Part shown: in pieces, positions 28,838 to 52,076 of the stretch
Layout: every line of letters begins with the position of its first letter
How positions within the stretch are numbered: position 1 is the first letter of the stretch
Assembly (NCBI GenBank): GCA_947632455.1
Contig: CANRPK010000003.1
Location: 2,476 to 66,475, forward strand
From: an uncultured Bacilli bacterium
GTDB taxonomy: Bacteria > Bacillota_I > Bacilli_A > RF39 > UBA660
Direction of reading: 5' to 3'
Length of the DNA stretch: 64,000 nucleotides
Program-made: the position numbers and the translations under genes
The notes under the pieces: model-generated
What the model saw: the letters and a program-made list of their open reading frames with translations, nothing else
Databases searched by the model: none
Told to the model about the DNA's origin: nothing

Positions 28838-28851
28838 CGAACCTTTTTTTT
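28814..28851 (+). terminator. Terminator at the end of cdaR
   Basis: AAGGTTCGT ... ACGAACCTT followed by a T8 run. The stem spans the cdaR stop codon. Confidence 0.6.
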
Positions 28852-29050
28852 ATTCACATATAGTAATTAATTCTCCAACAGAACAATCTAAATATTTGCA
28901 AAACTCTTCAATATATTTAAACGATATCGAAGTAGTATCACCTCTAATAATTCTATTAATATTTCTAGAAGTAATATTCATTCTTTGACATAACCAATAT
29001 TTAGTTTTACCTTTCTTTTTTAATAATTCTTCAATATTTATTTTAATCAT
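28850..29050 (-). CDS. XRE-family HTH regulator (66 aa), divergent from paralog copy 1
   Basis: KTKYWLCQRMNITSRNINRIIRGDTTSISFKYIEEFCKYLDCSVGELI is a Cro/C1-type HTH. Confidence 0.8.
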   Translation of the reverse strand: MIKINIEELLKKKGKTKYWLCQRMNITSRNINRIIRGDTTSISFKYIEEFCKYLDCSVGELITICE

Positions 29051-29104
29051 CTAAAGTCACCTCTACCAATATTTTATAAAATTAAGAAAATATAAATAAG
29101 GTAC

Positions 29105-29133
29105 TTGCATTACCCATATTTTTGATATATAAT
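29105..29133 (+). promoter_or_regulatory. Promoter of paralog copy 1
   Basis: TTGCAT, 17-nt spacer, TATAAT. Confidence 0.6.
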
Positions 29134-29144
29134 GTAAACATAAG

Positions 29145-29158
29145 TTAGAAATTTCTAA
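29145..29158. promoter_or_regulatory. 14-bp perfect palindrome TTAGAAATTTCTAA (candidate operator)
   Basis: Lies just downstream of the -10 element. An identical copy is at 40605-40618. Confidence 0.5.
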
Positions 29159-29182
29159 TAATATTGAGGAAAGGAAAAAAGA

Positions 29183-30667
29183 ATGAAAATAGAAAGGTTA
29201 GAAATAAGTAATAAAAAAGTAAAGATAGCATTTATAGTAGGAATAGTATTAACAGCAATATTATTTATAATGGTAAATTATTTAGTTACTAAAGCAAAGT
29301 ATCGAAATACAGAAAGCCTAGATTTAGTAAAAGGAACAATTACATATAATAAAGCAGATCTAAACATAATCGCGATGTATCAAGAAAGTAGCTATGGTAC
29401 AAATGGCTATAAACAAATAGATGATGTGCCAACAGAAAAATATACATTAAGTAATAAAAGTTATTGTGAAGTAGGCAGTCAAAAAGTAGAAGATGCTCAA
29501 ATTGAATATAGAGAAGGAGCAATATATGTAGGAAATATCAAAAAAAGAGGAACAAAATGTTATATATATTTTGATTTGGATTATAAGGCAGATGATATGT
29601 TAGCAAAATTAGAAACAATAAAACAAAGTAAATATGAAAAAACAGCAATGCCAAATCCAATCACAGGACCATACGATGCGGATGTAGAAAACCCGGAACA
29701 TAAAGAAAAAATATATACAACCGAAGATAACTACGGAACCAGTTATGTATTTAGAGGCAATAATGATGATGTAAATAACTGGGTAACATTTGCTAATCAT
29801 ACATGGAGGATAATCCGAATAAATGGAGATGGAACATTAAGGTTAATATTCCAATGTGCAGAGCCAAATTGTACAGATACAAAGGGACCAACAACCCAAA
29901 TAGGAAAAAGTGCATATAAATTAGCACCGCTTGATGATAATACCTATGTAGGATATTATTATGGCGAAGCGGGTCAAGACACATATGATAAAACTCATAC
30001 TAATGCTCATCCAAGCGATGTAGCAAAAGCTGTTGATAATTGGTATACCGGTACAGGAAATATGACTTCATATACTAAATATTTAAGTGGAGACACTGGA
30101 TTTTGTAATGATCGAGTAGTAGTTACTAAAGTTTGGAATGATTATGAAGGCAATGGAACAGGACAGTCTGCAACAGGATATGGTCCAGCAGCCAGATTAA
30201 TACTTAATGGCGGATGGAGAAAAAGTCAATACCCAACATTAAAGTGTGGGGTTAATATTGGTGGAGTAAATAAAGAAACATATGATAATTTTGATGTAGA
30301 TCCAACAGCATTAAAAAGAGATTTATTTACTACCAAGAACTCAGGCAGAGGTAACGAAATACTTACATATCCAGTAGGACTTATCACAAGTGATGAAGTT
30401 ACTATGGCTGGACTATTCGGAGGAACAGCATTTGCTGATTACTGGTTATATACAAATCAACATTATTGGACAATGTCTCCTAATTGGTATGATGTCAATA
30501 ATAAGGTGGCTGACGTGTTCCCTGTGCATGAGAATGGCAACTTTTACTACTGCGGCGTTGGTAGCGTTCATGGAGTGCGTCCAGTAATTAATCTTAATGC
30601 CGATATCGAATTTAGTGGAGGTACTGGTAAATCCGATAATCCATTTATCGTAAAAACAAGCAATTAA
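29183..30667 (+). CDS. Membrane-anchored paralog family protein, copy 1 (lectin-like C-terminal module)
   Basis: One N-terminal TM helix. Shares NWVTFANHTWRIIRINGDGTLRLIFQC, YVGYYYG, FCNDR, LKCG, LITSDEV, YWTMSP and GVRPVINLNADIEFSGG with 40641, 42526 and 50091. Confidence 0.85.
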   Translation: MKIERLEISNKKVKIAFIVGIVLTAILFIMVNYLVTKAKYRNTESLDLVKGTITYNKADLNIIAMYQESSYGTNGYKQIDDVPTEKYTLSNKSYCEVGSQKVEDAQIEYREGAIYVGNIKKRGTKCYIYFDLDYKADDMLAKLETIKQSKYEKTAMPNPITGPYDADVENPEHKEKIYTTEDNYGTSYVFRGNNDDVNNWVTFANHTWRIIRINGDGTLRLIFQCAEPNCTDTKGPTTQIGKSAYKLAPLDDNTYVGYYYGEAGQDTYDKTHTNAHPSDVAKAVDNWYTGTGNMTSYTKYLSGDTGFCNDRVVVTKVWNDYEGNGTGQSATGYGPAARLILNGGWRKSQYPTLKCGVNIGGVNKETYDNFDVDPTALKRDLFTTKNSGRGNEILTYPVGLITSDEVTMAGLFGGTAFADYWLYTNQHYWTMSPNWYDVNNKVADVFPVHENGNFYYCGVGSVHGVRPVINLNADIEFSGGTGKSDNPFIVKTSN

Positions 30668-30670
30668 AAA

Positions 30671-30708
30671 CTTGTCTATACTGCTTTCTTATTCCAAGTA
30701 TAGACAAG
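30671..30708 (+). other. Conserved post-stop hairpin, copy 1
   Basis: 12-bp stem CTTGTCTATACT/AGTATAGACAAG with 14-nt loop GCTTTCTTATTCCA. No T-run follows. Confidence 0.7.
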
Positions 30709-30721
30709 ATATATTATCAAA

Positions 30722-30747
30722 AGATAGGGTATACCTATCTTTTTTTA
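30722..30747 (+). terminator. Rho-independent terminator of copy 1
   Basis: AGATAGG-GTATA-CCTATCT followed by TTTTTT. Confidence 0.65.
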
Positions 30748-30941
30748 ACAAAAAATAAAAAGCCCTAAGGCTTCTTTTCAAATAAAAAAACATTTAACTT
30801 TTGCTTGAATTAGTAGAATTTGATATTAGTTAAGTAAAGGAAGTATATCAAAGAATGGAAAAGAATCTTCAAACAAATTAAATGTTCGATTGTGTATACT
30901 ACTACAAAAAATACATTTTGTCAAGCAAAATATTAAAAAAA

Positions 30942-32036
30942 TTAATTTTTTTCTGCTAAAACACCCAAAAACATAAAATAAACAATTATATTAGTACCAC
31001 CATAACTAAGAAAAGGCAAAGGAAGTCCGATAATAGGAAATAAACCTAAGTTCATGCCAATATTTTGAATTTGTGCAAAAATAAACATCATCAGAAATCC
31101 TGCAATAAACATCTTATATTTTGTATTTTTAGTTTTAAATAATTTTACTAAGAAATAAATATCTAAAGCCAAAAAAGCAATTAAGATAAATATTAAACTA
31201 ATAAAACCTAAATTACTAATAGAAAGGGCTACAATAAAATCTGTTGGAGCTTCTGGTATATAAACAAAATGTTTAGTTCCGAGTATATTTGAAGTACCAA
31301 TCGCCATTAAAGCTCTATCTAATTGAAAGGAATCTTTATTAACAAAAGTTAAAATTCGATCAATCCGATAAAAGAAAGAAGTTCCCAAAATACTAATTAA
31401 AGCATCTCTATTAAAATAATATAGATAACCTAAAGTTCCAATTCCCAAACCTAAAACCAGTCCCATCCCTAAATACCAACGCCAATTTATTTTAAAAACT
31501 AATATCATACCTAGCATAATTAATAAATATATAATAATAGCCCCAGTATCGGGCTCTAAAAATACAAATAAAGAGGGGATTAAAGTAAAAAATCCAGCTT
31601 TAAAAAGAAATTTTAATTCACCTTTAAAACCATGCTGTTTTTCTCTGGCTAATATTTGTGCTAAATATAAAGCTAAAGTAAACTTCATAAGTTCACTAGG
31701 TTGAAAAGAGAAGAAATGAAAATCAAACCAAGCTCTTGAACCATTAACCGTTTTACCAACAAAAAGAACTAATATTAATAATAAGACATTAAAATAATAT
31801 AAATATTTACTAAATTTAAAAAATAATCGGGGCTTCACAAATCTAATTAACAAAAATACACCTAAACCTAAAATAAACCAAGTTAATTGTTTATTAAAGT
31901 AACTTTTATAAAAAGTATTATTAATACCTACCATATACATATTAATTAAAGATATAGTAAGTAAACATATAATTGGTATAAATAATAATAAATAATTTTT
32001 TAATTTTTTCTTTTTCATATTTTTATTATGTTTCAA
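30942..32036 (-). CDS. FtsW/RodA/SpoVE-family peptidoglycan polymerase
   Basis: About 10 TM helices. SEDS motifs QPSELMKF and PLPFLSYGGT. Confidence 0.85.
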   Translation of the reverse strand: MKHNKNMKKKKLKNYLLLFIPIICLLTISLINMYMVGINNTFYKSYFNKQLTWFILGLGVFLLIRFVKPRLFFKFSKYLYYFNVLLLILVLFVGKTVNGSRAWFDFHFFSFQPSELMKFTLALYLAQILAREKQHGFKGELKFLFKAGFFTLIPSLFVFLEPDTGAIIIYLLIMLGMILVFKINWRWYLGMGLVLGLGIGTLGYLYYFNRDALISILGTSFFYRIDRILTFVNKDSFQLDRALMAIGTSNILGTKHFVYIPEAPTDFIVALSISNLGFISLIFILIAFLALDIYFLVKLFKTKNTKYKMFIAGFLMMFIFAQIQNIGMNLGLFPIIGLPLPFLSYGGTNIIVYFMFLGVLAEKN

Positions 32037-32078
32037 AATTAAATATATATCATAAAATATTTATAAGAGGTGTACTAA

Positions 32079-32375
32079 ATGAATAAAAATTTACCAAGAG
32101 TATATGTTAATCCTATAAATAAAGAATTAAAAAATAATAAAGATATTTTTTATAGTAAACAAAACGATGTAAGAGGTAATCCCTCAGGTAATATAATGCA
32201 AAAGATTAATGAAATTTTTGCCAATCCCCACCATGTATATAAAAGTAAAGTAAATATTGTAACTAAAGATAATAGTTTTGATACTATTATAGTTGGCAAA
32301 AATAATCGTGATTTACTTACTTTAAATGGTGAGGCCATAAATATAAATGACATCATCGATATTAAAAGAATTTAG
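32079..32375 (+). CDS. Hypothetical small protein
   Basis: 98-aa ORF with RBS AGAGGTG. No family recognised. Confidence 0.4.
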   Translation: MNKNLPRVYVNPINKELKNNKDIFYSKQNDVRGNPSGNIMQKINEIFANPHHVYKSKVNIVTKDNSFDTIIVGKNNRDLLTLNGEAININDIIDIKRI

Positions 32376-32384
32376 CCCCCAAAT

Positions 32385-32413
32385 TTGACTTTTCCTTGAA
32401 GATATGGTAAAAT
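32385..32413 (+). promoter_or_regulatory. sigma-A-type promoter
   Basis: TTGACT, 17-nt spacer, TAAAAT. Confidence 0.5.
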
Positions 32414-32448
32414 TAAAACACTTCGCAAGAAGCAGGGGGTAACAATAA

Positions 32449-33015: not shown

Positions 33016-33061
33016 ATTGCTTTTTTATTTGTTTTAGAATATAATACTTTTAGGTGATAAT

Positions 33062-34435: not shown

Positions 34436-35128
34436 TTGGTGATAAACGTGCTAGTATGTGGTAAAAATGTTTTAAAAGAAACCCCAACTAATAAAATTCA
34501 TAAAGTATATTTAAAAGAAAATTTTAAAGATCAAAGTATTATTGATTATCTAAAAGAGCAAAAAATTCATTATGAATTTGTTCCTATTTTTCGTTTAGAT
34601 AAAATGGTTGATGCCAATCATCAAGGAATAGTCATAGATATAGATGATTTTACTTATTCTTCATTAGATGAAATATATGATGAAGATTTTGTTGTCTGTT
34701 TAGATCATTTAGAAGACCCTCATAATTTAGGAGCTATAATTCGAACTTGTGAATGTGCAGGTATTAAAAGTATTATTATTCCTAAAGATCGTAGTATTAG
34801 AGTAAATGAAACAGTAATGAAAATAAGCGCTGGCGCTATTAATAATATTAAAGTAGTATTAGTAAGCAATATTAATAATGCTTTACAAAAACTTCAAGAA
34901 AAATATTTCTTTGTTTATACCGCGGATATGGATGGTAAAGATTATCGTCAAGTTGACTATGCTTCCAAAAAAGTTTTAGTTATTGGTGCCGAAGGAGCCG
35001 GAGTAAGTAAACTAACCCGTAAGATTAGTGATGAAATAATCAGTATTCCTATGTATGGTAAAATAAATTCATTAAATGCTAGTGTTTCCGCGGCTATTTT
35101 AATTTATGGTATGATAAGGGCTAAATAA
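34436..35128 (+). CDS. rlmB: TrmH/SpoU-family 23S rRNA 2'-O-methyltransferase (RlmB-like)
   Basis: LEDPHNLGAIIRT, VLVIGAEGAGVS, IPMYGKINSLNASVSAAILIY. Confidence 0.8.
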   Translation: MVINVLVCGKNVLKETPTNKIHKVYLKENFKDQSIIDYLKEQKIHYEFVPIFRLDKMVDANHQGIVIDIDDFTYSSLDEIYDEDFVVCLDHLEDPHNLGAIIRTCECAGIKSIIIPKDRSIRVNETVMKISAGAINNIKVVLVSNINNALQKLQEKYFFVYTADMDGKDYRQVDYASKKVLVIGAEGAGVSKLTRKISDEIISIPMYGKINSLNASVSAAILIYGMIRAK

Positions 35129-35694
35129 TGACAAAAACAAATGAACAAATAGATGAATTATATGAAAAATATAAATATATAGTTGATATATTAATGCATA
35201 AATATCGTAATAGTGCTTTAAAATATTCCGTTGATTTAAAAGAATTAGAACAAGAAGCTTATTATGCTTTCGCGGATGCTCTAAAAAATTTTGATCAAAA
35301 TAAAAATACTTTAATAAGTACTTTCATTTCTTTATGTGTAGATCGCCGTATTCAAAAAATTATCAAAAAATATAGTGGTAAAAAAGCTCAAACCCTAAAT
35401 AATACTTATTCTCTAGATTATGATTATAATGAAGAGGGGATGACTTTAAAAGATATTATAAGTGATGATTATGAATTTGAACCTTTAAATAATTTAACTT
35501 TAAAAGAAAATTATGAAGAATTACTTCAAAAAATAAAAGAAAATCTTTCTTTAACTGAATATGAAGTTTTCTGTTATATGATTAATGGTTTTGATTATCA
35601 AACAGTGGCTCTTTTAACTAATCGTGAACCTAAACAAATAGATAATACTATTCAAAGAATTAAACATAAAATAAGAGATATTATTAAGGAATAA
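35128..35694 (+). CDS. sigH: Sigma-70-family sigma factor, SigH-like by synteny with rlmB
   Basis: A region 2-like segment (ELEQEAYYAFADALKNFD) and a region 4 HTH (YQTVALLTNREPKQIDNTIQRIKHKI). TAATG coupling to rlmB. Confidence 0.6.
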   Translation: MTKTNEQIDELYEKYKYIVDILMHKYRNSALKYSVDLKELEQEAYYAFADALKNFDQNKNTLISTFISLCVDRRIQKIIKKYSGKKAQTLNNTYSLDYDYNEEGMTLKDIISDDYEFEPLNNLTLKENYEELLQKIKENLSLTEYEVFCYMINGFDYQTVALLTNREPKQIDNTIQRIKHKIRDIIKE

Positions 35695-39284: not shown

Positions 39285-39358
39285 AAAAAGTTATATGACC
39301 GACATCATTCGACAATTTTTTTACTTTTATTATGATATTATGCTAATAGGTGATTAAT

Positions 39359-39778
39359 ATGCGAACATTTTATATATTTAATATAAATAAAGAATTTTAT
39401 AATTTAATGAAAAATAATCCATATCATTTATTTAGAGCTATGGAAGATATTCATAACTTTGATAATAAAGATGTAACTTTAGCTTATGATCTATTTATGC
39501 AAATAGTAAGTCCTTTTGATAAAAGCAAAATAAATAATAAAATATTTAATGAATCTAAAGAAAATGATTTTTATACTAAATTTCATAATGTCCATCGTAT
39601 TAAAAATAAATATATTCCTGAAGATTCTATGCTTGTCGTAAATAAAGCTTTTCTTTTATTAGAAAGTAATATTTTAAAACCAACTTTCTTAAATGAATTA
39701 AAAGAATATCATAACCTTTTTGTCTGTGATTTTAAAAATAAAGATTATTTTTGGTTAAATGAATTAGTATACTTGTAA
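39359..39778 (+). CDS. sirA: Sporulation inhibitor of replication SirA-like
   Basis: The N-terminus RTFYIFNINKEF and C-terminus FVCDFKNKDYFWLNE resemble B. subtilis SirA/YneE. It is immediately upstream of yneF, as in Bacillus. Confidence 0.55.
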   Translation: MRTFYIFNINKEFYNLMKNNPYHLFRAMEDIHNFDNKDVTLAYDLFMQIVSPFDKSKINNKIFNESKENDFYTKFHNVHRIKNKYIPEDSMLVVNKAFLLLESNILKPTFLNELKEYHNLFVCDFKNKDYFWLNELVYL

Positions 39779-40058: not shown

Positions 40059-40508
40059 TTAACTTATTCTCCCAAGTAAATAATCCGCGGATATATTATA
40101 TCTTTTACATATTTCATATAAAAAAGAAGTTGAAATAAGATATCTTCCTCTCTCATAATCTGCAATAACTGAATGAGTAGTATTTAAAATATCTGCTAAT
40201 CTCTCTTGAGTAAGCTTATTATCTTTTCTAAATTTTTTTAATCTTTCTCCCAGTAATTCTTTTTTATATTGTTTTTCACTTTTTTTAAATTGTTTATTAT
40301 CAGTAAAACTAAATATATAATCTAAAGAAACATTAAAGTAATCACATAAATTAATTAAATGTTTTAAAGGCATGATAGTATATTCTGTTTCATACTGATT
40401 ATATGTTCCTTTATATATTTCTAATAAATCTGCCACTTCATATTGTTTTAAGTTTTTACTTTCTCTTAGTTCAATTAATCTTTTGCTATACATTGTATTC
40501 ACCAACAT
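40059..40508 (-). CDS. XRE-family regulator with two HTH domains (149 aa), divergent from copy 2
   Basis: Two Cro/C1 HTH units: LKQYEVADLLEIYKGTYNQYE and LTQERLADILNTTHSVIADYERG. Confidence 0.8.
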   Translation of the reverse strand: MLVNTMYSKRLIELRESKNLKQYEVADLLEIYKGTYNQYETEYTIMPLKHLINLCDYFNVSLDYIFSFTDNKQFKKSEKQYKKELLGERLKKFRKDNKLTQERLADILNTTHSVIADYERGRYLISTSFLYEICKRYNISADYLLGRIS

Positions 40509-40564: not shown

Positions 40565-40593
40565 TTGACTTTAATAATATCAAAGTATATAAT
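40565..40593 (+). promoter_or_regulatory. Promoter of paralog copy 2
   Basis: TTGACT, 17-nt spacer, TATAAT. Confidence 0.6.
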
Positions 40594-40604: not shown

Positions 40605-40618
40605 TTAGAAATTTCTAA
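40605..40618. promoter_or_regulatory. Palindrome TTAGAAATTTCTAA (candidate operator), second copy
   Basis: Identical to 29145-29158 and at the same distance from the -10 element. Confidence 0.5.
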
Positions 40619-40640: not shown

Positions 40641-42110
40641 ATGAAGATAGAAAAAATAGGGGAAACAAATAAATATAAATGGATAATAATAGGCTTTATC
40701 ATTTGTGCCAGTTTATTTGTTATGATAAATTACCTAATAACCAAAGCAAAATACCGAAATACAGAAAGTGTAGATTTAGTAAAAGGAACAATTACCTATA
40801 ATAAAGCAGATCTAAACATAATAGCGATGTATCAAGAAAGCAGTTATGGTACAAATGGGTATAAACAAATAGATGATGTACCAACTGAAAAATATACATT
40901 AAGTAATAAAAGTTATTGTGAAGTAGAAGGACAAAAAGTAGAAGAAGCCCAAATAACATATGAAGAAGGGTATATAAGTGTAAGTAAAATAAATAAAAGA
41001 GGAACAAAATGCTATATCTATTTTGACTTAGATTATACATCAGAAGATATGTTAGCAAAGTTAGAAGAAACAAAACAAAGTACATATGAAAAAACAACAA
41101 TGCCAAATCCAATCACAGGACCATATGATGAGCAAAAAGAAAATCCAGAACATAAAGAGAAACTATATACAACCGAAGATAATTATGGAACCAGTTATGT
41201 ATTTAGAGGAAACAATGAAGATGTAAATAACTGGGTAACATTTGCTAACCATACATGGAGGATAATCCGAATAAATGGAGATGGAACATTAAGAATGATA
41301 TTCCAATGTGCAACTCCAGGATGTACAGATACAGAAGGGTCAATAACCACAATAGGTAATAGTGCATATAAATTAGCCCCATTTGATGATAATGCATATG
41401 TCGGATATTATTACGGCGAAGCAGGACAAGACACATATGATAAAACTCACACCAATGCTTATCCGAGTAAAGTATCAGAAACCATAAAAGAGTGGTATAA
41501 CAAAAATGACAATATGACTAATTATACTAAATATTTAAGTGGAGATACAGGATGGTGTAATGATCGAGTAGTGGTTCAAAATCTTTGGGAAAGTGCTAAA
41601 GGCGATGGATCCAATAAATCCACTACAATTTATGGTCCAGCAAATAGACAAAAATTAAATAATGTTTGGAGAAAAGAACAATATGCAAATTTAAAATGTG
41701 GAACAATTTATGCTAATGATTTAAGTACTTTTTCATATAATGAGAAAGTAATGGAAAGGGATTTATTTACAACAGAAGGATCAATTCAAGGAAATGGAAA
41801 ACTCCCGGTTCCAGCCGCGTTAATCACAAGTGATGAAGCCTTGATGGTTGGAGGCTTTGGAGGAACAGCAAGCACAAATCATTGGCTATACACCAACCAA
41901 AATTATTGGACAATGTCTCCTTTTTGGTACGATGGAAATATGAATTGGGCCGTAATGTTTGCTATAAAAAGTGATGGTAGTGTTTATCATGAAAAAATAG
42001 GAATAACCAATAATGGAGTTCGCCCCGTAATTAATTTAAATGCTGATATAGAATTTAGCGGAGGAGACGGAAAATCATCTAATCCATTTATCGTAAAAAC
42101 AAACATATAA
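40641..42110 (+). CDS. Membrane-anchored paralog family protein, copy 2
   Basis: Same architecture and conserved blocks as copy 1. The 5' ~185 nt are about 94% identical to copy 1. Confidence 0.85.
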   Translation: MKIEKIGETNKYKWIIIGFIICASLFVMINYLITKAKYRNTESVDLVKGTITYNKADLNIIAMYQESSYGTNGYKQIDDVPTEKYTLSNKSYCEVEGQKVEEAQITYEEGYISVSKINKRGTKCYIYFDLDYTSEDMLAKLEETKQSTYEKTTMPNPITGPYDEQKENPEHKEKLYTTEDNYGTSYVFRGNNEDVNNWVTFANHTWRIIRINGDGTLRMIFQCATPGCTDTEGSITTIGNSAYKLAPFDDNAYVGYYYGEAGQDTYDKTHTNAYPSKVSETIKEWYNKNDNMTNYTKYLSGDTGWCNDRVVVQNLWESAKGDGSNKSTTIYGPANRQKLNNVWRKEQYANLKCGTIYANDLSTFSYNEKVMERDLFTTEGSIQGNGKLPVPAALITSDEALMVGGFGGTASTNHWLYTNQNYWTMSPFWYDGNMNWAVMFAIKSDGSVYHEKIGITNNGVRPVINLNADIEFSGGDGKSSNPFIVKTNI

Positions 42111-42114: not shown

Positions 42115-42152
42115 TTTGACTATACTGCTTTCTTATTCCAAGTATAGTCAAA
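42115..42152 (+). other. Conserved post-stop hairpin, copy 2
   Basis: Stem TTTGACTATACT/AGTATAGTCAAA with the identical loop GCTTTCTTATTCCA. A separate terminator hairpin lies at 42156-42179. Confidence 0.7.
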
Positions 42153-42177
42153 AATAATAGGCTCAATAAGCCTATTT

Positions 42178-42387
42178 TTATTTACTAGTTTCTTTTATAA
42201 ATTTAATTATTTCCGTATCGGGAATTTTTAAAATCGTAAGTAATTTAGCAATAGTTTCAAATTTAGCATATCTATAATTACCATTTTCTATTCTAAATAA
42301 ATTTCTCCATGAAATATCACATAATTCAGCTAATTCTTCTAAAGTATAATTATTTTTAATTCTATACTCCTTTAACATACATATCAC
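42178..42387 (-). CDS. XRE-family HTH regulator (69 aa), divergent from copy 3
   Basis: YTLEELAELCDISWRNLFRIENG is a Cro/C1 HTH. Confidence 0.8.
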   Translation of the reverse strand: MICMLKEYRIKNNYTLEELAELCDISWRNLFRIENGNYRYAKFETIAKLLTILKIPDTEIIKFIKETSK

Positions 42388-42405: not shown

Positions 42406-42446
42406 TAAAAAGAATATAAAAGTATGACGCAAATGGCAATTTATAT

Positions 42447-42475
42447 ATTGACATAAATGTCATAAAATATTATAA
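42447..42475 (+). promoter_or_regulatory. Promoter of copy 3 with an overlapping palindrome TGACAT-AA-ATGTCA
   Basis: TTGACA, 17-nt spacer, TATAAT. The palindrome at 42448-42461 covers the -35 element. Confidence 0.6.
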
Positions 42476-42525
42476 TTTAAGCATAAGTTAGAATTATTTA
42501 ATATAATTGAGGAAAGGGAAAAAGA

Positions 42526-44034
42526 ATGAAAATAGAAAGGTTAGATATTGATAGTAAAAGAAATAAGACAATATTTGTAGTAGGATTTATATTAGCAATA
42601 ATATTAGTAATAGTAATAAACTATATAACCAGTCTAGCAAGATATAGGAATACAGAAAGTATAGAACTAGCAAGTGGTAATATAAACTACAATAAGGCAG
42701 ATTTGAATATAATCGCTATGTATCAAGAAAAAGATGATAGTACATCTGAAGAGAAAGAATATATAAATATAAATAAGATACCCACAATAGGATATAAATT
42801 AAGTGAAGATAGTTATTGTGAAATAAATGGAGAGCCAATAGAAGAAGTAGAGATAGAATATAAAAATAGTGCAATATATGTAGGAAATATAACAGAAAAA
42901 GGAACAAAATGTTATATATATTTTGATAGTTTAGTAAAAGAAATGTTAGGTAAATTAGAAACCTCAAAGGGAAGTAAATATACCATAGATGAAATGCCAA
43001 ATCCAATCACAGGACCATATGATGAAAGTACAGAAAATCCTGAAGGAGAAGAAAAATTATATACCAGTCCAGATAATTATGGAACCAGTTATGTCTTTAG
43101 AGGAAATAATGATGACGTAAATAACTGGGTAACTTTTGCTAATCATACATGGAGAATAATCAGAATAAATGGAGATGGAACATTAAGGTTAATATTCCAA
43201 TGTGCAACTGAAAATTGTACTGATGCAATCGGTGAAAATACCCAAATAGGAAAAAGTGCTTATAAATCTAAACCGTTTGATGATAATACCTATGTAGGAT
43301 ATTATTATGGAACAGCACACACAGATGAAAAACCAAGTCCAAGTTATGAAGAAGCACATTCAAACTCTACGATAGCTAAAGCAATAAATAATTGGTACAG
43401 TGGTACAGGAGCAATGACAGATTACACCAATTATTTAGAGGGAAGCACAGGATTTTGTAATGATCGAGTAGTAGTAAAAAATGTTTTGAATACGTTTGAA
43501 GGCGATGGTGCCGCACAAAGTTCAACAGGTTATGCACCAGCCGCCAGATTAATTTCAACTAGCGTACGGAGAACAAAACAATATCCAACATTAAAGTGTG
43601 GAGTTGTAATGCCAGAAATAAGCCCATCAAATGATGTAGGATTTAATAGTTTTGATGAGATAGATACTACCGCATTAAAAAGAGACTTATTCACAGTAGA
43701 AGGTTCAGATAGAGGAAATGCAAAGCTTCCAGTGCCAGTAGGGCTTATCACTAGTGATGAAGTAGCAATGGCTGGAGGCTTTGGAAGAACAGTCTCTACT
43801 GATTACTGGTTATATACAAATCAAGATTATTGGACAATGTCTCCACGAGACTATGATGCTTCGGTTAAGTGGGCTAATGTGTTCGCTGTTCGTGAAGATG
43901 GCACCCTCAACAGTTGGAGCATTAGAGATAGTCGTAGTGGAATGCGTCCAGTCATCAACTTAAAAGCTGATATTGAATTTAGTGGAGGAGCTGGAAAATC
44001 ATCTAATCCATTTATTGTAAATACAAGTAATTAA
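42526..44034 (+). CDS. Membrane-anchored paralog family protein, copy 3
   Basis: Same conserved blocks. Tandem to copy 2. Confidence 0.85.
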   Translation: MKIERLDIDSKRNKTIFVVGFILAIILVIVINYITSLARYRNTESIELASGNINYNKADLNIIAMYQEKDDSTSEEKEYININKIPTIGYKLSEDSYCEINGEPIEEVEIEYKNSAIYVGNITEKGTKCYIYFDSLVKEMLGKLETSKGSKYTIDEMPNPITGPYDESTENPEGEEKLYTSPDNYGTSYVFRGNNDDVNNWVTFANHTWRIIRINGDGTLRLIFQCATENCTDAIGENTQIGKSAYKSKPFDDNTYVGYYYGTAHTDEKPSPSYEEAHSNSTIAKAINNWYSGTGAMTDYTNYLEGSTGFCNDRVVVKNVLNTFEGDGAAQSSTGYAPAARLISTSVRRTKQYPTLKCGVVMPEISPSNDVGFNSFDEIDTTALKRDLFTVEGSDRGNAKLPVPVGLITSDEVAMAGGFGRTVSTDYWLYTNQDYWTMSPRDYDASVKWANVFAVREDGTLNSWSIRDSRSGMRPVINLKADIEFSGGAGKSSNPFIVNTSN

Positions 44035-44079
44035 AAACATGCCTATACTGCTTTCTTATTCCAAGTATGGGCATGTTTT
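44032..44079 (+). other. Conserved post-stop hairpin, copy 3 (also terminator-like)
   Basis: 17-bp stem AAAAACATGCCTATACT/AGTATGGGCATGTTTTT (one G-T pair) with the identical loop GCTTTCTTATTCCA. Confidence 0.7.
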
Positions 44080-44207
44080 TAATATCTAATAAATACTCAT
44101 ATTTAATTATCTAATATATTTATAAAAAGAATAAAATTTATCATTTTTTCTTGATTTTGAAATATATATATGATAGACTTATTAATAGAATAAAAGGTGG
44201 TGTAAGG

Positions 44208-45149
44208 ATGGACTTCCTTAATAAATTATATGAAAGCAATTACTTCGGCATAAGTTTATTTGCCGTTATATCCTTTTTAGTTGTAACATTTTTAGTAGTG
44301 TTATTCTTTGGTAAAAGAGATGAAAAGCAAACTAAATTAAATGAAGAAAATAAAACAAATAATATAGATAATAATGAAATAGATACATTTAAGGAAATAA
44401 ATGAACCAGTTCATTTAGAAACTCCAGTTGCACCTGTAGAAGAGCCTACAATTATACCAGTAGCTCCAGCACAAACAATTAGTGAACCTGTTGAGACACC
44501 AGTTACTCCGGTTGCTCCAGTCACACCAATTAATTATGAAATTCCTGAACCAACACCAATGCCAGTTGAAGAGGAAAAAGTACCAGAGCCAATATCTTTA
44601 GAAGAAATACCAACACCTATAATTAGTGAACCAGTAATAACTCCAATCGAGACAATCGAACCAACATCATTTGCTCCAGAGCAAACAATTAGTGAACCTG
44701 TTGAAGCTTTAGATGTACCACCAATAGAAGAAAAGGTTGAAGAGTTACCAACATTTGAACCAAATATTCCAAAAGTTATGGAACCAACCAAAATTGATTT
44801 AAATCCTGTACCAGAAGTACAAGATGAACCAATAAGTGAACCAAGACCAACAATTATAGAAGAACCTGAAATTGTTGCTCCATATTATAAACCAGTTGAA
44901 CCTACTAAAATACCTGAGGTGAAAATACCAAATATTGATTATGATACTCTAGCAAAATCAATATCTGATGAATTAGATGAATTAGAAAAGCAAACACCAA
45001 CGATTAATCCTACTAAACCAACTAATGACACATCTAATTTAAGATCATTTAGTTCAGTATATGTAGATACCCCAAATAGACCAGAACCAAAAGCTGAGCC
45101 TATTGACTTACCTAAAAAAATAGATTTACCAAAAAAAATTGATAGATAA
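44208..45149 (+). CDS. Membrane-anchored Pro/Glu/Val-rich repeat protein
   Basis: ATG 44208 follows AAGGTGGTG. One TM followed by PxxP-rich repeats (QTISEPVE twice; terminal IDLPKKIDLPKKID). Confidence 0.55.
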   Translation: MDFLNKLYESNYFGISLFAVISFLVVTFLVVLFFGKRDEKQTKLNEENKTNNIDNNEIDTFKEINEPVHLETPVAPVEEPTIIPVAPAQTISEPVETPVTPVAPVTPINYEIPEPTPMPVEEEKVPEPISLEEIPTPIISEPVITPIETIEPTSFAPEQTISEPVEALDVPPIEEKVEELPTFEPNIPKVMEPTKIDLNPVPEVQDEPISEPRPTIIEEPEIVAPYYKPVEPTKIPEVKIPNIDYDTLAKSISDELDELEKQTPTINPTKPTNDTSNLRSFSSVYVDTPNRPEPKAEPIDLPKKIDLPKKIDR

Positions 45150-45587: not shown

Positions 45588-45608
45588 AAACTAAATAGCT
45601 TTCTAAAA

Positions 45609-47908: not shown

Positions 47909-49692
47909 TGCCAAGAATGCGTACAGTCGAAAAAGTAAAAGATTTCAAGGGAACTGTTAAAAGATTATATAAAAGAATATCTAAATATAAATTTTTAATT
48001 ATATTAGCTTTCCTTTTTGCTATTGGAAGTACAGTTTTTGCTATCATATCTCCAAAGATATTAGGAAATGCTACAACTGAGATTTATACTGGCCTAATTG
48101 CCAAAATAAATGGAGTAGGCACCATTAATTTCCAAAGAATTTCTCATATTTTAATTACTTTAGCCATCCTTTATATTATTAGTGCTTTATTTAGTTATAT
48201 TCAAAGTTTAATAATGACAAGTGTATCTCAAAAAGCTAGTTATGAATTACGAAAAGAAGTATCTGTAAAACTAAATAATTTACCTATGAAATATTATGAT
48301 AAACAATTAACAGGTGATATTTTATCTATAATTACTAATGATATAGATACATTACAAATAAGTTTAAATGGTTCACTAACCCAAATAGTTAGTGCTATAG
48401 TTACTATTATTGGAATATTTATTATGATGCTATCAATTAATGTATCTCTAGCTATTATAACGGCTTTAGTTTTACCATTTGCTTCTTTAATTGTTTTATT
48501 AATTGTTAGTAAAAGTCAAAAACATTTCGTAGCTCAACAAAAATATCTTGCTGAAGTAGATGCTGAAGTAGAAGAAATGATAAGTGGATATACAGTCATA
48601 AAAGCTTTTAATGCTGAAGAAAAAACTTTAAATAAATTTAATGAAGATAATTTAAAACTTCAAGATGCCGGTTTTAAATCTCAATTCTTATCTGGTCTAA
48701 TGCATCCAATTATGAATTTTGTAGGTAATTTAAATTATGCAATAATTGCTATAATTGGTTCATTGTATGCGATAAAAGGTAAAATAACTGTTGGTAATAT
48801 TCAAAGTTTTATTCAATATTCTCGTCAATTTACTAATCCTATTGCTCAATTAGCTCAAATTTCTAATCAAATTCAATCTATGCTAGCTGCTAGTGAAAGA
48901 GTATTTAACTTCTTAAGTGAAGAAGAACAAATAGATGAAGGTACTCTTAGTGCTAACAAAGTAGAGGGAAATATTGAATTTAAGAATGTTAAATTTGGAT
49001 ATAATCCTAATAAAATTATTATCAAAGATTTTAACGCTAAAGTAAAAAAAGGGGAAAAGATTGCCATTGTAGGTCCAACCAGTGCTGGAAAAACTACTAT
49101 TGTCAAATTATTAATGCGTTTTTATGAATTAAATAGTGGAGAAATCTTACTTGATGGTAAAAATATTACTGAATATAAACGTAGTGAATTAGAGAGTGTT
49201 TTCGCTATGGTTTTACAAGATACCTGGTTATTTAATGGTACTATCATGGATAACTTAAGATATGGAAACTTAAATGCCTCTGATAAAGAAGTAATAGCCG
49301 CGGCTAAAACAGCTAGTGCAGATTATTTTATTCATACTTTACCAGAAGGATATAATATGGTTTTAAATGAAGAAACAAGTAATATTAGTGGAGGTCAAAA
49401 ACAATTATTAACTATTGCAAGAGCAATATTAGCTAATCCCAAAGTTTTAATATTAGATGAAGCCACTTCAAACGTTGATACCAGAACTGAAGAATTAATT
49501 CAAAAAGCCATGGATAAAGTCATGGAAGGAAGAACTTCATTTATTATTGCCCATCGTTTATCTACCATTAAAAATGCTGATCTAATTTTAGTTATGAATG
49601 AAGGAGATATAGTAGAAGTAGGAAAACATGAAGAATTGTTAAAGAAAAATGGTTTCTATGCTACTATATATAATTCTCAATTTGAAAAATAA
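47908..49692 (+). CDS. ABC exporter permease/ATPase fusion (partner 2)
   Basis: ATAATG coupling. Walker A GPTSAGKTT, signature ISGGQKQLLTIARA, Walker B VLILDEATSNVD. Confidence 0.9.
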   Translation: MPRMRTVEKVKDFKGTVKRLYKRISKYKFLIILAFLFAIGSTVFAIISPKILGNATTEIYTGLIAKINGVGTINFQRISHILITLAILYIISALFSYIQSLIMTSVSQKASYELRKEVSVKLNNLPMKYYDKQLTGDILSIITNDIDTLQISLNGSLTQIVSAIVTIIGIFIMMLSINVSLAIITALVLPFASLIVLLIVSKSQKHFVAQQKYLAEVDAEVEEMISGYTVIKAFNAEEKTLNKFNEDNLKLQDAGFKSQFLSGLMHPIMNFVGNLNYAIIAIIGSLYAIKGKITVGNIQSFIQYSRQFTNPIAQLAQISNQIQSMLAASERVFNFLSEEEQIDEGTLSANKVEGNIEFKNVKFGYNPNKIIIKDFNAKVKKGEKIAIVGPTSAGKTTIVKLLMRFYELNSGEILLDGKNITEYKRSELESVFAMVLQDTWLFNGTIMDNLRYGNLNASDKEVIAAAKTASADYFIHTLPEGYNMVLNEETSNISGGQKQLLTIARAILANPKVLILDEATSNVDTRTEELIQKAMDKVMEGRTSFIIAHRLSTIKNADLILVMNEGDIVEVGKHEELLKKNGFYATIYNSQFEK

Positions 49693-49722
49693 AAAGTCGC
49701 TTTTAAAGCGACTAATTTTTTT
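49691..49722. terminator. Bidirectional terminator shared by the ABC operon and the convergent XRE gene
   Basis: AGTCGCTT-TTA-AAGCGACT flanked by an A-run and a T-run. Confidence 0.6.
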
Positions 49723-49957
49723 GTATTAATTTATCTAAACTTACATCTAAAGCAATAGAAATTCTATATAAAGTATCTACCGAAAAAGTATTAGCAACTT
49801 TTTCACTTTCAATTTGGCGAATAAAATCATGAGATAAATCTACTAATTCCGCCAGTTGAGCCGCCGTCATTCCTTTTTCTTTTCGATATTTTTTTATATT
49901 TTTTCGAATGGTTCCATAAATATCCGTATCAAATTGCAATTTCTTCAAACTAACCAC
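49712..49957 (-). CDS. XRE-family HTH regulator (81 aa), divergent from copy 4
   Basis: MTAAQLAELVDLSHDFIRQIESEK is a Cro/C1 HTH. Confidence 0.8.
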   Translation of the reverse strand: MVSLKKLQFDTDIYGTIRKNIKKYRKEKGMTAAQLAELVDLSHDFIRQIESEKVANTFSVDTLYRISIALDVSLDKLIQKN

Positions 49958-49994
49958 CTTTAATTTAATTGTAAGCTATTGCCTAACAGAAATA

Positions 49995-50013
49995 TGTGAT
50001 TGAATAAATCACA
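49995..50013. promoter_or_regulatory. Inverted repeat TGTGATT-N5-AATCACA (candidate operator)
   Basis: Located in the divergent intergenic region. ATATGTGA occurs twice. Confidence 0.4.
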
Positions 50014-50030
50014 AAAAAATATGTGAACTA

Positions 50031-50059
50031 TTGACTTACAAATTAGTTTATGCTAATAT
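50031..50059 (+). promoter_or_regulatory. Promoter of copy 4
   Basis: TTGACT, 17-nt spacer, TAATAT. Confidence 0.5.
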
Positions 50060-50090
50060 AAAATTATCATAGAAACGGAGAATACGATAT

Positions 50091-52040
50091 ATGACAAAAA
50101 ATCGCATATTAATTGCAATAGTAAGTGTATTGCTTATTGGGGTAGGAATAAGTATGGCATATTTTGCCGCAAAGGTAAGTAGTACAGGTGGAGGAATAAG
50201 TACAGAAGTAACAACCGCTAAAATAGGCGATGTAACAATAGAGATGTATGGAAAATTAGATTTAGATGTTGAAGATATGTATCCAGGACATTCAGATGTA
50301 TCAAGATTAGATGTAAAAGCTACGGGAGATAATAGATTAGTCGCATATAATTTAGTGTGGGCAGGAACAAATAGCCTACAAACAAAAATAGAATATATAG
50401 TATATAGAGTAACAAATACTTTAGAAGTAAGTAGTGCTTGTGAAGTAAAAACAAAAATAATAGAAGAAGGACAAGCCGTATATGAAGAATGTAAAATAAA
50501 TAATATAGATAAATTAGGAAGTCCAGTAGGAAGTGGAACAATAGAGACTGGCGAAGAAATATTAGTAGAGGATGAATTTATAAATGCTAGTCCAACCGGA
50601 GAAGAAATCCATTATTATGTGGTATTAACATATCCAAATAAAGAAGAAGATCAAGATTATGATAGAACAGGGGAATTTAGTGGCGAGATAAAAATAACCA
50701 ATAGTGATGCTAAACCAGATATAACAATCTTAGCCGCATATGTAGAAGATGAAAAGACAGGTAAGTTTAATGAAGCAAAGAAGATACCTGAAGGAGAATA
50801 TAAACTAAATAATAGAAGTACATGTACAAATGGAGCAACCCCAATATGGGATACAAATAATAAAGGATTATTAGTTGCAAATTTAACAGAAACAGGAACT
50901 AGTTGTGTTTTATATTTTGAAAAGAAATATGCATCAGATGATATGTTAGCAAAACTAGAGGCAGCAAGACAAGCAAAATTCAATATCGAAAAGATGCCAA
51001 ATCCCCTCACCGGACCATATAGTGGCGATGCTAGTTCTGATCAACCAATAGCGAATGATAAATTATATACAAGTCCAGATAATTATGGAAGAAGTTATGT
51101 ATTTAGAGGAAACAATTATGATGTTCACAACTGGGTAACATTCGCAGGACATACATGGAGAATAATCAGAATAAATGGAGATGGCACATTAAGATTAATA
51201 TATCAATGTGCTACCCCAGGATGTACAACAACTGAAGGAGAAGGAACTCACATAGGAACAAGTATATATAAGTCAGAAGCAATAGATGATAATACCTATG
51301 TAGGATATTATTATGGAGAACCAGGACAAGAAACATATGATGCCACTCATACAAATGCTCATCAAAGTACTATAGCTAAATATATTTCAGATTGGTATAG
51401 TGGAACAGGAGCAATGACAAATTATACTAAATATTTAAGTGGAGATACAGGATGGTGTAATGACCGAACAGCAGTTAAAAATTTTTTGAATGGATATGAA
51501 GGTGATGGTACGGGTAAAACTTTAACAGGATATGCGCTATCAACAAGACTAATTGCAAAAGGCGGAGCCTGGAGATTAAAACAATATCCGACCTTAAAAT
51601 GTGGAGCGGTAATGCCAGAAGAAAATCCAACAGAAGAAGAAGGAGCAAAATATTTTAGCAATTTTGAAGTAGACAATACTGCTTTAAAAAGAGATTTATA
51701 TACAACAATAGGTTCTAGTAATGGAAATAAAGTATTAGATGTTCCAGCAGCCTTAGTTACAACTGATGAAGTAGCTATGGCAGGAGGCTTTGGAGGTACA
51801 GCTTCTACAAATTATTGGCTATATACAAATCAATATTATTGGGCAATGTCTTCTTGGGGTTATTTTTCAGAAGGCTTTGCTCGTGCGTGGGTTACACAGG
51901 AGGGTGGTGCCTTATGGGGTGCCTGGGAAGTACGTCGTAGTTACGGTGTCCGCCCAGTAATAAATTTAAATGCTGATGTAACATTTAGTGGAGGAACAGG
52001 TACATCAAGTAATCCATTTGTAGTAAATACAAGTAATTAA
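50091..52040 (+). CDS. Paralog family protein, copy 4, with an extra TasA/camelysin-like N-terminal domain
   Basis: N-terminus ILIAIVSVLLIGVGISMAYFAAKVSS and MYPGHSDVSRLDVKATG (TasA-like), followed by the shared core from DDMLAKLEAARQ to GVRPVINLNADVTFSGG. Confidence 0.85.
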   Translation: MTKNRILIAIVSVLLIGVGISMAYFAAKVSSTGGGISTEVTTAKIGDVTIEMYGKLDLDVEDMYPGHSDVSRLDVKATGDNRLVAYNLVWAGTNSLQTKIEYIVYRVTNTLEVSSACEVKTKIIEEGQAVYEECKINNIDKLGSPVGSGTIETGEEILVEDEFINASPTGEEIHYYVVLTYPNKEEDQDYDRTGEFSGEIKITNSDAKPDITILAAYVEDEKTGKFNEAKKIPEGEYKLNNRSTCTNGATPIWDTNNKGLLVANLTETGTSCVLYFEKKYASDDMLAKLEAARQAKFNIEKMPNPLTGPYSGDASSDQPIANDKLYTSPDNYGRSYVFRGNNYDVHNWVTFAGHTWRIIRINGDGTLRLIYQCATPGCTTTEGEGTHIGTSIYKSEAIDDNTYVGYYYGEPGQETYDATHTNAHQSTIAKYISDWYSGTGAMTNYTKYLSGDTGWCNDRTAVKNFLNGYEGDGTGKTLTGYALSTRLIAKGGAWRLKQYPTLKCGAVMPEENPTEEEGAKYFSNFEVDNTALKRDLYTTIGSSNGNKVLDVPAALVTTDEVAMAGGFGGTASTNYWLYTNQYYWAMSSWGYFSEGFARAWVTQEGGALWGAWEVRRSYGVRPVINLNADVTFSGGTGTSSNPFVVNTSN

Positions 52041-52043
52041 ATA

Positions 52044-52076
52044 CATGCCTATAATGCTTATTCATTTATAGGCATG
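52044..52076 (+). other. Conserved post-stop hairpin, copy 4
   Basis: Stem CATGCCTATAA/TTATAGGCATG with the related loop TGCTTATTCAT. Confidence 0.6.

Follow-up and report, generated by a model that had tools for sequence, protein, structure and literature searches.

Cassettes pairing a putative, DUF6273-like surface protein with an XRE regulator form a candidate recombining repertoire in uncultured gut Bacilli

We analysed 64,000 nt from an uncultured Bacilli bacterium of the RF39 lineage (UBA660; GenBank assembly GCA_947632455.1, contig CANRPK010000003.1, positions 2,476 to 66,475 of the forward strand). This whole stretch is referred to as the window, and positions are counted from its first letter. 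The window carries four cassettes, each consisting of a gene for a large protein with one N-terminal transmembrane (TM) helix (paralogs A to D) and a small, divergently transcribed gene of the XRE regulator family (xA to xD). On balance, we favour the view that the cassettes belong to a recombining repertoire of surface binding proteins, each with its local regulator. The argument draws on the divergence of these genes between otherwise near-identical strains, on the likeness of the large protein to DUF6273 receptor-binding proteins, and on the pairing with XRE genes in relatives.

A preliminary description of the window, made from its letters and translated open reading frames (ORFs), had proposed this arrangement, with a related hairpin after each large gene. 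All four large ORFs are present where it placed them, on the + strand, with pairwise amino-acid identities of 49–69% (Table 1). Each of the four divergent small genes has a Pfam match to an XRE-type helix-turn-helix (HTH), and an 11-bp stem, which we call hairpin 1, starts 3–4 nt past each of the four stop codons. A tblastn search within the window found no fifth copy of the paralog. Cassettes B and C abut.

We compared the window with three contigs from other samples of the same species (L084, L086 and L087), all of them short-read metagenome assemblies. On L084, the 8 kb flank upstream of A, including xA and the entire control region, is 97–100% identical to the window; identity then falls to 66–87% from the A start codon to the end of the gene. 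Cassettes B, C and D are covered by L086 and L087, which were obtained from two samples and show no difference from each other over the aligned stretch of locus B. In these contigs the XRE genes, promoters and housekeeping genes are 95–100% identical to those of the window, as against 48–90% for the B, C and D genes themselves. The drop is strongest past the CNDR motif, where amino-acid identity is 53–66%. Synonymous divergence (dS) is 0.24–0.68 across the four genes and reaches 1.07 in the part encoding the head of the protein, compared with 0.036–0.042 in the adjacent ABC transporter genes; this is 6–17 times the background over whole genes and up to ~25 times in the head-encoding part. The ratio of nonsynonymous to synonymous divergence (dN/dS) is 0.23–0.46 in the four genes and 0.03–0.06 in the ABC transporter genes. 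Such high dS points to old, divergent sequence imported by recombination, rather than to point mutation in place on the time scale of the flanks.

The alleles are mosaic, their best match switching among A, B, C and D of the window. At locus A, the L084 allele is 93–100% identical to window paralog B over its first ~600 nt, with the left junction between the Shine-Dalgarno (SD) sequence and the ATG; it is 98–100% identical to the B-locus gene of its own strain for ~300 nt, and then diverges. In D, variable blocks (72–80% identity) alternate with blocks of ~100% identity. The variable blocks lie after WRIIRINGDG, after CNDR, and between YW.MS and GVRP, and two of them coincide with the loops of greatest variation across the family (aa 311–350 and 434–460). 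For B, C and D, the divergent stretch stops shortly ahead of the hairpin, within the conserved 3′ coding tail. L084 stays collinear with the window up to the final base of hairpin 1 of A (window position 30708) and no further. Cassette content at a given locus varies between close relatives, and rare block-mosaic members occur inside clusters of 90% identity. In a search for recent gene conversion among the four window copies, the longest identical run was 44 nt. We conclude that these genes appear as strain-level mosaic divergence islands, which points to recombination among paralogs.

Beyond the point at which its collinearity ends, L084 continues (9536–10123) into a different double-HTH XRE gene, 72% identical to xB, and a cassette promoter, and not into the terminator and ftsW. 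Two origins are conceivable for this junction: insertion of an additional cassette at the hairpin, or a join made at a repeat during assembly. The window's own arrangement recurs in a further sample, L121.

The sequence blocks that the preliminary description had listed are present in the translations, and many fall on invariant or near-invariant columns of our family alignment, which comprises 71 sequences including relatives. The motifs conserved in this way are WRIIRINGDG, YVGYYYG, CNDR, LKCG, L-I-T-x-D-E, YWTMSP and GVRPVINL. Four cysteines are invariant (C95, C126, C308 and C355; numbering of A), and the pairs C95/C126 and C308/C355 suggest an extracellular location. A set of polar residues is invariant in all 71 members (N199, R209, R212, N214, R220, D380, T383, N391, D404, E405 and R466). 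The AlphaFold2 model of paralog A, made with 71 homologs (pLDDT 87.4, pTM 0.80), agrees with the proposed single TM helix, placing a helix across the hydrophobic stretch (residues 10–39). After the helix come a juxtamembrane linker with little order, a small beta domain (61–132) and a large mixed domain (~150–494); the cytoplasmic tail is only ~13 residues long.

Profile searches with the window proteins themselves returned little. Pfam gave no match for A–D, neither to DUF6273 (gathering score 23.5 bits), even at E ≤ 1, nor to Lcl_C/DUF1566 (PF07603); NCBIfam gave no match for A–D and PADLOC no family for them at E ≤ 0.01. PHROGs gave the large proteins only weak matches to PHROGs of unknown function, and neither a single-sequence (phmmer) nor a profile search found sequence relatives in the PDB. 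Exact-protein look-ups for A, P0031, P0008 and the FtsW ORF gave no match. The aligned relatives are more informative: 34 of the 71 members match DUF6273 at E ≤ 0.1, the best of them at 2.6e-5, and it is the only family to recur. In relatives (33–40% identical) these matches are weak and lie over the YW..S/GVRP end of the profile. Several relatives exceed 23.5 bits, mostly over profile positions 127–171 only, and the matches of two relatives span positions 57–171 or 59–171. For Lcl_C/DUF1566, the best relative scored 19.4 bits (E 0.0014), below the gathering score of 34.9 bits. When the model of A was compared with BFVD using Foldseek, the top matches were DUF6273 proteins of gut phages, over 300–470 aligned columns; five matches at E ≤ 0.001 had E values of 2.5e-5 to 1e-3 and probabilities of 0.69–1.0.

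We conclude from the model that A is predicted to have the same fold as DUF6273 proteins, and from model and alignment together that the core of the family is best described as an expanded, insertion-rich and very divergent DUF6273-like head. The preliminary description had suggested a C-type-lectin-like module. This lead stands in kind, through the DUF6273 matches of 34 of the 71 members and through the structural model; the window copies themselves stay below the profile threshold of DUF6273. No well-characterised family with known regulation was found as a match to the core. Our literature search found nothing relevant to such a system in RF39-like bacteria, and no description of the family, its XRE pairing or its hairpin. 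DUF6273 has been reported to be C-type-lectin-like and to have a receptor-binding role in phages, where it is a target of diversity-generating retroelements (DGRs), with the variable region (VR) at its C-terminus (PMC10743442; bioRxiv 2024.10.15.618418). In the family described here, variability peaks at the two stretches named above, aa 311–350 and 434–460.

An exhaustive profile search found the core module in 11,274 clusters of 50% identity at E ≤ 1e-3, and in 3,150 at E ≤ 1e-30. Giant proteins carry up to 27 matched stretches of it, which marks the module as a repeatable unit of very large, presumably surface, proteins. It also co-occurs with VWA, Listeria-Bacteroides repeat, InlB B-repeat and ALK/LTK glycine-rich domains, which commonly accompany binding modules outside the cell. 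Among the giant metagenomic proteins are P0163 (4905 aa), P0164 (3528 aa), P0168 and P0238, with 8–27 module stretches each.

All four window XREs score above the gathering scores of HTH_3, HTH_26 or HTH_19, with E values from 1e-10 to 1e-24, and have an HTH of the Cro/C1 type. Beyond the HTH they are unrelated to one another. The gap between each paralog and its divergent XRE gene is 132–138 bp. xA is 99–100% identical in the conspecific strain and has a 66-aa ortholog in the same synteny. The true starts of xC and xD likely lie a few codons inside the listed GTG starts, since their orthologs are called at 66 and 78 aa. PADLOC matched the XREs to generic HTH models only, including HTH_VI, RmrA, capH and C-protein.

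A scan of one genome per species yielded at least 573 encoded relatives, of which the best 80 were used for taxonomy and copy counts. All of these are in gut metagenome-assembled genomes (MAGs), deposited as uncultured Bacilli, Tenericutes, Mycoplasmatota, 'Mycoplasma sp. CAG:776' or Candidatus Caccenecus, with one locus deposited as Ruminococcus sp. Two MAGs supply 11 of the 80 loci each, and so contain at least 11 copies each. For a census of pairing we used the window and 83 related loci (~0.55 Mb), which together hold 78 family genes with upstream sequence. A divergent XRE gene lies within 700 bp of 64 of these 78 copies, and nearly every XRE-like ORF in the ~0.55 Mb is the partner of a cassette. 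Both the multi-copy state and the XRE adjacency, on which the preliminary description had staked its proposal, are thus kept in relatives. Of the 64 partners, 43 are double-HTH proteins of 144–181 aa like xB, and we regard xB as the canonical partner type of the family. Across species, double-HTH XREs are 57–63% identical while their partner genes share just 35–40%; within a pair it is thus the regulator that is better conserved. In some MAGs, family genes occur in tandem (L042 2359–5836, L072 4–3209 and L083 631–4266); the second gene of such a pair starts a few bases from the end of the first, or overlaps it, with neither XRE gene nor hairpin between them.

Promoter-like sequences precede all four large genes (Table 1). 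Those of B and C are of the sigma-70 type and match 11 and all 12 of the 12 consensus positions; in cassette A a good −10 box is combined with a weak −35 box. The interval between the −10 box and the ATG is a leader common to A, B, C and many relatives, of the form TATAAT..ATAAGTTAGAAATTTCTAAT..GAGGAAAGG, and in many relatives a TAGAAATTTCTA palindrome stands at the same position of the leader. As RNA, the leader palindrome is not significant (z −0.2 to −0.9; in cassette A, −3.5 kcal/mol and z −0.9), and for this reason we favour a DNA operator over an RNA structure. The palindromes around the promoters of C and D fit private operators.

Two other upstream arrangements were seen among relatives. 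A second, longer class of 5′ leader lies ~100–130 nt upstream of the family gene, with the form TATAAGCTAGGAAAC..(TATCATA..TATGATA)..AAATGAAGCCTAGCATCATG (L014, L018, L019, L021, L027, L038, L048, L049, L058, L060, L065 and L067). Its segments GCTAGG and CCTAGC are complementary, and it may act either as a leader RNA with secondary structure or as an operator of compound type. Another motif, TTGACAAGTTTTGTCGAA..AATGAAAT, which contains the inverted repeat TTGACAA/TTGTCGAA, occurs upstream of copies that mostly have no adjacent XRE gene (L024, L026, L034, L042, L046, L055, L059, L073, L080 and L083). Its position at these copies suggests a different, unlinked regulator.

At the other end of the cassette, a 28-nt core of hairpin 1 is identical in A, B and C, with 0 matches expected by chance, and the 3′ regions have RNA folding z-scores of −4.8 to −7.5. 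We scanned the window and related loci for an 11-bp stem with a loop beginning TGC (or CGC), and every convincing instance followed a family gene, on the sense strand and 3–40 nt past the stop codon; the element is family-specific. A stricter search of the 110 nt after each family stop codon gave 25 hairpins, 22 of them distinct, with loops of 11–20 nt and with the outer stem CTTGYC/GRCAAG and the loop start TGCT conserved. Compensatory changes on both sides occur in 9 of the 11 stem pairs (46 cells), a level reached by none of 500 shuffles. Non-Watson-Crick pairs comprise 12 G.U and 2 A.C under a filter that treats both alike, and this bias favours an element that is read on the sense strand, such as RNA. 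The hairpin does not behave as a private XRE site, because the inner stems of A and B are identical and their XREs are different. In A and B, hairpin 1 is followed by a second hairpin that is a more canonical terminator with a T-run, and in relatives by an element like GATAGRG..CYCTATC+T(n); hairpin 1 of C may itself terminate transcription. No Rfam family matches the hairpin or the leader; within the window, Rfam finds tRNAs only. Two hairpin scans of the JGI metagenome collection gave 0 matches and then 33 chance matches, none near a family gene and only one whose inner stem is complementary throughout; the collection apparently does not contain these organisms. We infer that hairpin 1 serves to stabilise or terminate the mRNA at its 3′ end, a role as recombination site being a minority alternative.

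Taken together, our proposal is as follows. The cassette would be an autonomous two-gene chromosomal unit of an uncultured, spore-forming gut Bacilli lineage. Its large protein would be anchored by the N-terminal TM helix, with the two-cysteine stalk and the large head outside the cell. As a relative of DUF6273, the head would be a surface binding protein, either an adhesin or a receptor, whose specificity probably resides in loops close to the C-terminus; the DGR-mutated region of phage DUF6273 receptor-binding proteins lies at this position. Diversity would come from a germline repertoire of paralogs and from segmental recombination rather than from a retroelement, giving mosaic alleles in near-identical conspecific genomes. 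Transcription would start at a strong promoter of the sigma-A type. The divergent XRE would regulate its own gene and gate the neighbouring one through the ~130-bp, palindrome-bearing control region, by repression or activation. The mRNA would end in the conserved 11-bp stem-loop, as a putative 3′-end stabilising or termination element, and the terminator. Stem-loop, 3′ coding tail and 5′ leader may serve as homology anchors for exchange between paralogs.

Several observations weigh against this proposal. Ligand binding by the head is deduced solely from its predicted fold and from the domains that accompany the module elsewhere, and an active site would be an equally good reading of invariant polar residues such as D404, E405, R466, R209 and R212. 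The fold comparison has its own difficulties. A Foldseek search of the PDB returned nothing significant, with C-type lectin matches at a probability of at most 0.15, and the model did not match solved structures of the C-type lectin-like fold; among the five BFVD matches at E ≤ 0.001 the TM-scores are low (0.13–0.42), which we ascribe to the large insertions. The role given to the XREs follows from their position alone, and 14 of the 78 copies have no adjacent XRE gene. A and B have an identical leader palindrome yet unrelated XREs, and the palindrome may thus belong to a common regulator and not to the adjoining XRE. For the stem-loop, the paired fraction is partly circular, as hairpins were chosen for pairing. 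Finally, paralog repeats can give chimeric contigs in metagenome assemblies, and L084 is a single contig; the agreement of L086 with L087 argues against chimeric joins for the B–D region.

Other readings of the cassettes were weighed against the same evidence. The paralogs might be remote DGR targets, with the stretch before GVRP as VR and the downstream hairpin as a target-recognition hairpin. DUF6273 is a known DGR target with its VR at the C-terminus (PMC10743442; bioRxiv 2024.10.15.618418). The most variable loop of A, aa 434–462, lies at the VR position. DGR targets also have a hairpin or cruciform downstream of the VR, but the loop of the hairpin here is 11–20 nt long and not 3–5 nt, and the variable loop is followed by ~31 conserved codons before the gene ends. 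The strain differences include indels, cover the whole head and have very high dS, and an identical protein is found on up to 157 contigs. The sole reverse transcriptase near a relative has a QGAPTSP motif. We rejected DGR-target status because neither a reverse transcriptase nor a template-like repeat or extra copy of the 3′ end occurs in the window, and because three 90% clusters showed no point hypervariation confined to the C-terminal VR, their variation being sparse or in block mosaics; we consider this reading barely credible. The units might be mobile cassettes, with the 3′ hairpin as an attC-like or other single-strand recombination site at which a dedicated recombinase inserts, deletes or swaps them. 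The hairpin resembles attC in its logic, since its outer arms (CTTGYC/GRCAAG) are conserved, its inner stem covaries and its loop differs in length; the departure of L084 exactly at the 3′ end of the hairpin and into another cassette, the abutting of B and C, and the differing cassette content of close relatives would all fit. Against this, the stems are perfect and have no extrahelical bases, the 12:2 bias of G.U over A.C and the sense orientation fit an mRNA element, and the strain divergence of B, C and D ends in the 3′ coding tail rather than at the hairpin. The breakpoint is a single example that could be an assembly join at a repeat. In the window neighbourhood and the related loci examined, no integrase or transposase lies in or beside the cassettes. 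An integron-type cassette was rejected, given a hairpin but no integrase, and cassettes that are dispersed and have their own promoters; mobility of this kind strikes us as very unlikely.

Two further readings concern what the protein does. Pairs of an XRE gene and an effector gene are common in defence islands, and the cassettes could be defence or exclusion modules in which an XRE-controlled membrane protein senses or blocks phage, through abortive infection, superinfection exclusion or as a decoy for phage receptor-binding proteins, and is diversified under pressure from phage. The generic PADLOC HTH matches of the XREs, a head fold common to phage receptor-binding proteins, and the strain-level hypervariability typical of phage-host interfaces are compatible with such a role. 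The large proteins themselves have no PADLOC match and only weak PHROG matches of unknown function, though, and the ~13-residue cytoplasmic tail leaves no evident effector or signalling part. The cassettes stand among housekeeping genes and not in a defence island, and the module occurs in giant multi-repeat proteins typical of adhesins. We hold a defence function to be quite unlikely. An extracellular enzyme that hydrolyses or modifies cell-wall or host glycans, expanded as a set of isozymes, would account for the polar residues that are invariant across 71 diverse members. The C-type lectin fold class includes enzymes such as the formylglycine-generating enzymes, and one characterised protein fuses DUF6273 to an M64 IgA protease. 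Yet no similarity to a catalytic family was found in Pfam, NCBIfam or the PDB, variability is greatest in surface loops whose position corresponds to the receptor-binding site of the phage homologs, and up to 27 modules stand in tandem, as is typical for binding repeats and not for enzymes, so that an enzyme seems unlikely. A bolder extension of the recombining repertoire is likewise doubtful: a programmed surface-variation system of a new design, in which each paralog is an expression unit complete in itself and under its own regulation, leader and 3′ stem-loop act as cis-acting signals that bound and promote the exchange of coding segments between paralogs, possibly with cassette insertion at the hairpin, and the XREs choose the copies that are expressed. 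Were it true, a small-genome, uncultured gut Bacilli lineage would possess a combinatorial repertoire of lectin-like receptors, a chromosomal and recombination-based counterpart of the DGR diversification of the same fold in phages.

The genes that separate the cassettes encode CdaA, YbbR, FtsW/RodA, a glucosaminidase, a Mur ligase, a SpoU methylase, a radical SAM protein, a P-type ATPase, a SirA-like protein, UPF0154, HU and two ABC exporters. These are ordinary chromosomal, housekeeping genes, in keeping with the earlier claim that the cassettes are interleaved with core genes and do not form a single island. The sigH-like label that the preliminary description gave to 35128–35694 was not reproduced, this ORF having no Pfam match. 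Directly after cassette C, a 332-aa ORF (44151–45149, +) also has no Pfam match; its conspecific nucleotide identity is 75–94%, versus 97–100% for surrounding genes, and it may encode another variable surface protein. The window further contains a cluster of five tRNA genes (57518–57949, +), a lone tRNA gene (20132–20203, −), and sporulation-associated genes for CotJB, CotJC (Mn catalase) and a SirA-like protein (23612–24647 and 39350–39778). Sporulation genes of relatives (L085 7148–9777; L086 13531–13791) encode SpoVG, YabP, DivIC, YabG and SpoVS, and the same lineage has peptidoglycan genes (FtsW, Mur ligase and glucosaminidase). Its sporulation genes notwithstanding, relatives have been deposited as Tenericutes, Mycoplasmatota or 'Mycoplasma sp.'.

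Paralog D has an additional N-terminal beta domain of ~150 aa in a low-confidence model (AlphaFold2 pLDDT 25–55 over the domain), for which a word-index search of 5.8 billion proteins found no homologs. Within D residues 1–200 (50091–50690), this all-beta domain comes after a TM or signal segment ending ..SMAYFAAK, and residues 110–144 are faintly like the stalk of A and B (E 0.002–0.02). By eye only, AKYRNTES..GTI in A–C and AYF in D resemble the SipW signal regions of TasA/CalY-type proteins; models for TasA/camelysin (Peptidase_M73) or SipW-type signals gave no Pfam or NCBIfam match at E ≤ 1. The reverse transcriptase mentioned above (L001 13967–14899; 310 aa, with QGAPTSP and YSDD motifs) is encoded next to ychF, 4.5 kb downstream of a family gene (P0110). 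From its motifs we take it to be retron-like and not of the DGR type, and it is unrelated to the cassettes as far as tested.

Table 1. Features of cassettes A to D, in window coordinates (nt) unless given as residues (aa)
Feature	Position	Strand	Remarks
xA	28850–29050	−	66 aa; single-HTH XRE, divergent from A; Pfam HTH_26, 1.9e-13
Control region of cassette A (intergenic)	29051–29182	+	
−10 box of cassette A	29128–29133	+	TATAAT
Palindrome of cassette A	29145–29158		TTAGAAATTTCTAA
SD sequence of cassette A	within 29051–29182		GAGGAAAGG
Paralog A	29183–30667	+	494 aa
TM helix of A	aa ~14–36		hydrophobic stretch
Beta stalk of A	aa 61–132		holds C95 and C126
Expanded DUF6273-like head of A (predicted)	aa ~150–494		
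Most variable loop of A	aa 434–462		nt 30482–30568
Hairpin 1 of A	30671–30708	+	CTTGTCTATAC / 16-nt loop starting TGCT / GTATAGACAAG
Second hairpin and T7 run of A	30719–30750	+	RNAfold; probable intrinsic terminator
xB	40059–40508	−	149 aa; double-HTH XRE; Pfam HTH_3 twice, 1.3e-24
Promoter of cassette B	40565–40593	+	TTGACT-17-TATAAT; 11/12 consensus positions
Palindrome of cassette B	40605–40618		TTAGAAATTTCTAA
Paralog B	40641–42110	+	489 aa; database protein P0008
Hairpin 1 of B	42115–42152	+	outer stem TTTGAC/GTCAAA, compensated relative to A
Bidirectional intrinsic terminator between B and xC	42156–42176		
xC	42178–42387	−	66–69 aa; single-HTH XRE; Pfam HTH_19 and HTH_3
Second palindrome of cassette C	near xC start		ATGACA..TGTCAT
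Inverted repeat of cassette C	42442–42469		TATATATTGACAT/ATGTCATAAAATA; overlaps promoter
Promoter of cassette C	42448–42476	+	TTGACA-17-TATAAT; 12/12 consensus
Paralog C	42526–44034	+	502 aa; database protein P0032
Hairpin 1 of C	44038–44075	+	one U.G wobble; T5 run directly after
xD	49712–49957	−	78–81 aa; single-HTH XRE; Pfam HTH_3, 1.1e-11
Palindrome of cassette D	~49995–50013		TGTGATT-N5-AATCACA
Promoter of cassette D	50031–50059	+	TTGACT-17-TAATAT; TG upstream
Paralog D	50091–52040	+	649 aa; common module from aa ~192 on
Hairpin 1 variant of D	52044–52076	+	11-nt loop
Second hairpin of D	52077–52097	+	abuts hairpin 1
Third hairpin of D	52106–52127	+	terminator-like

No curated model, solved structure or described function covers this very large family of modules, which is massively expanded in never-cultured lineages of gut Bacilli. 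If its members are surface receptors or adhesins, they are prime candidates for attachment to host, mucus or partner cells, and for recognition by phages and by the immune system. The strain pattern would be a clean natural example of recombination-driven surface variation; in phages, by contrast, the same fold is diversified by retroelements. Two regulatory features are concrete and testable, namely the almost universal pairing with a private XRE gene and the covarying 3′ stem-loop.

Parts of this arrangement recall known systems. In Bacillus subtilis, SinR and SlrR, of the XRE family, control the tapA-sipW-tasA matrix operon, and the cassettes likewise have a small XRE-type regulator adjoining the gene for a putative surface protein. 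xC and xD have weak SlrR matches (E 0.016 and 2.3e-7, with scores far below the 250-bit cut-off); unlike SinR and SlrR, the XREs of the family are mostly double-HTH proteins with no SinR-like tail shown, and no sipW was seen in the window. The C-type-lectin-like Lcl C-terminal domain, DUF1566 (PF07603), has a C-terminal ending of the YW..S...GVRP type in common with the family. Single weak matches of relatives (E 0.0014 and 0.08) and weak Foldseek matches to DUF1566 phage proteins place the relation at superfamily level at best.

Surface protein families that vary by gene conversion include MgPa/MgPar of Mycoplasma genitalium, pilE/pilS of Neisseria and vlsE of Borrelia. As in these, there are many paralogs per small genome and mosaic alleles in near-identical strains, dS is far above the genomic background, and conserved ends flank variable interiors. 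Unlike them, each copy is a complete gene with promoter, SD sequence, terminator and usually a regulator. No silent donor cassettes feed a single expression site, the fold is unrelated, and no switching within a sample was observed.

The closest likeness in fold is to DUF6273 (PF19789), found in phage receptor-binding proteins ('tentaclins', Mtd-like DGR targets) and in Firmicutes surface proteins, with the most variable loop at the same position. We take the order of motifs to be common to both (W-R-[IV]-[IL].., ..W[YL].., L-[IL]-[ST]-x-x-E, YW..S, GVRP). The head described here differs in its length of ~340 aa, about twice that of the 172-position profile, with large insertions, and in two conserved, disulfide-like pairs of cysteines. 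Unlike the phage proteins, the paralogs are cellular, anchored by an N-terminal TM helix, and diversified by paralogy and recombination, with no DGR seen. We conclude that the family is best placed among the multigene families of variable surface proteins, its DUF6273 branch being uncurated, and that what is new here are its strain-level mosaic divergence islands and its own covarying 3′ hairpin.

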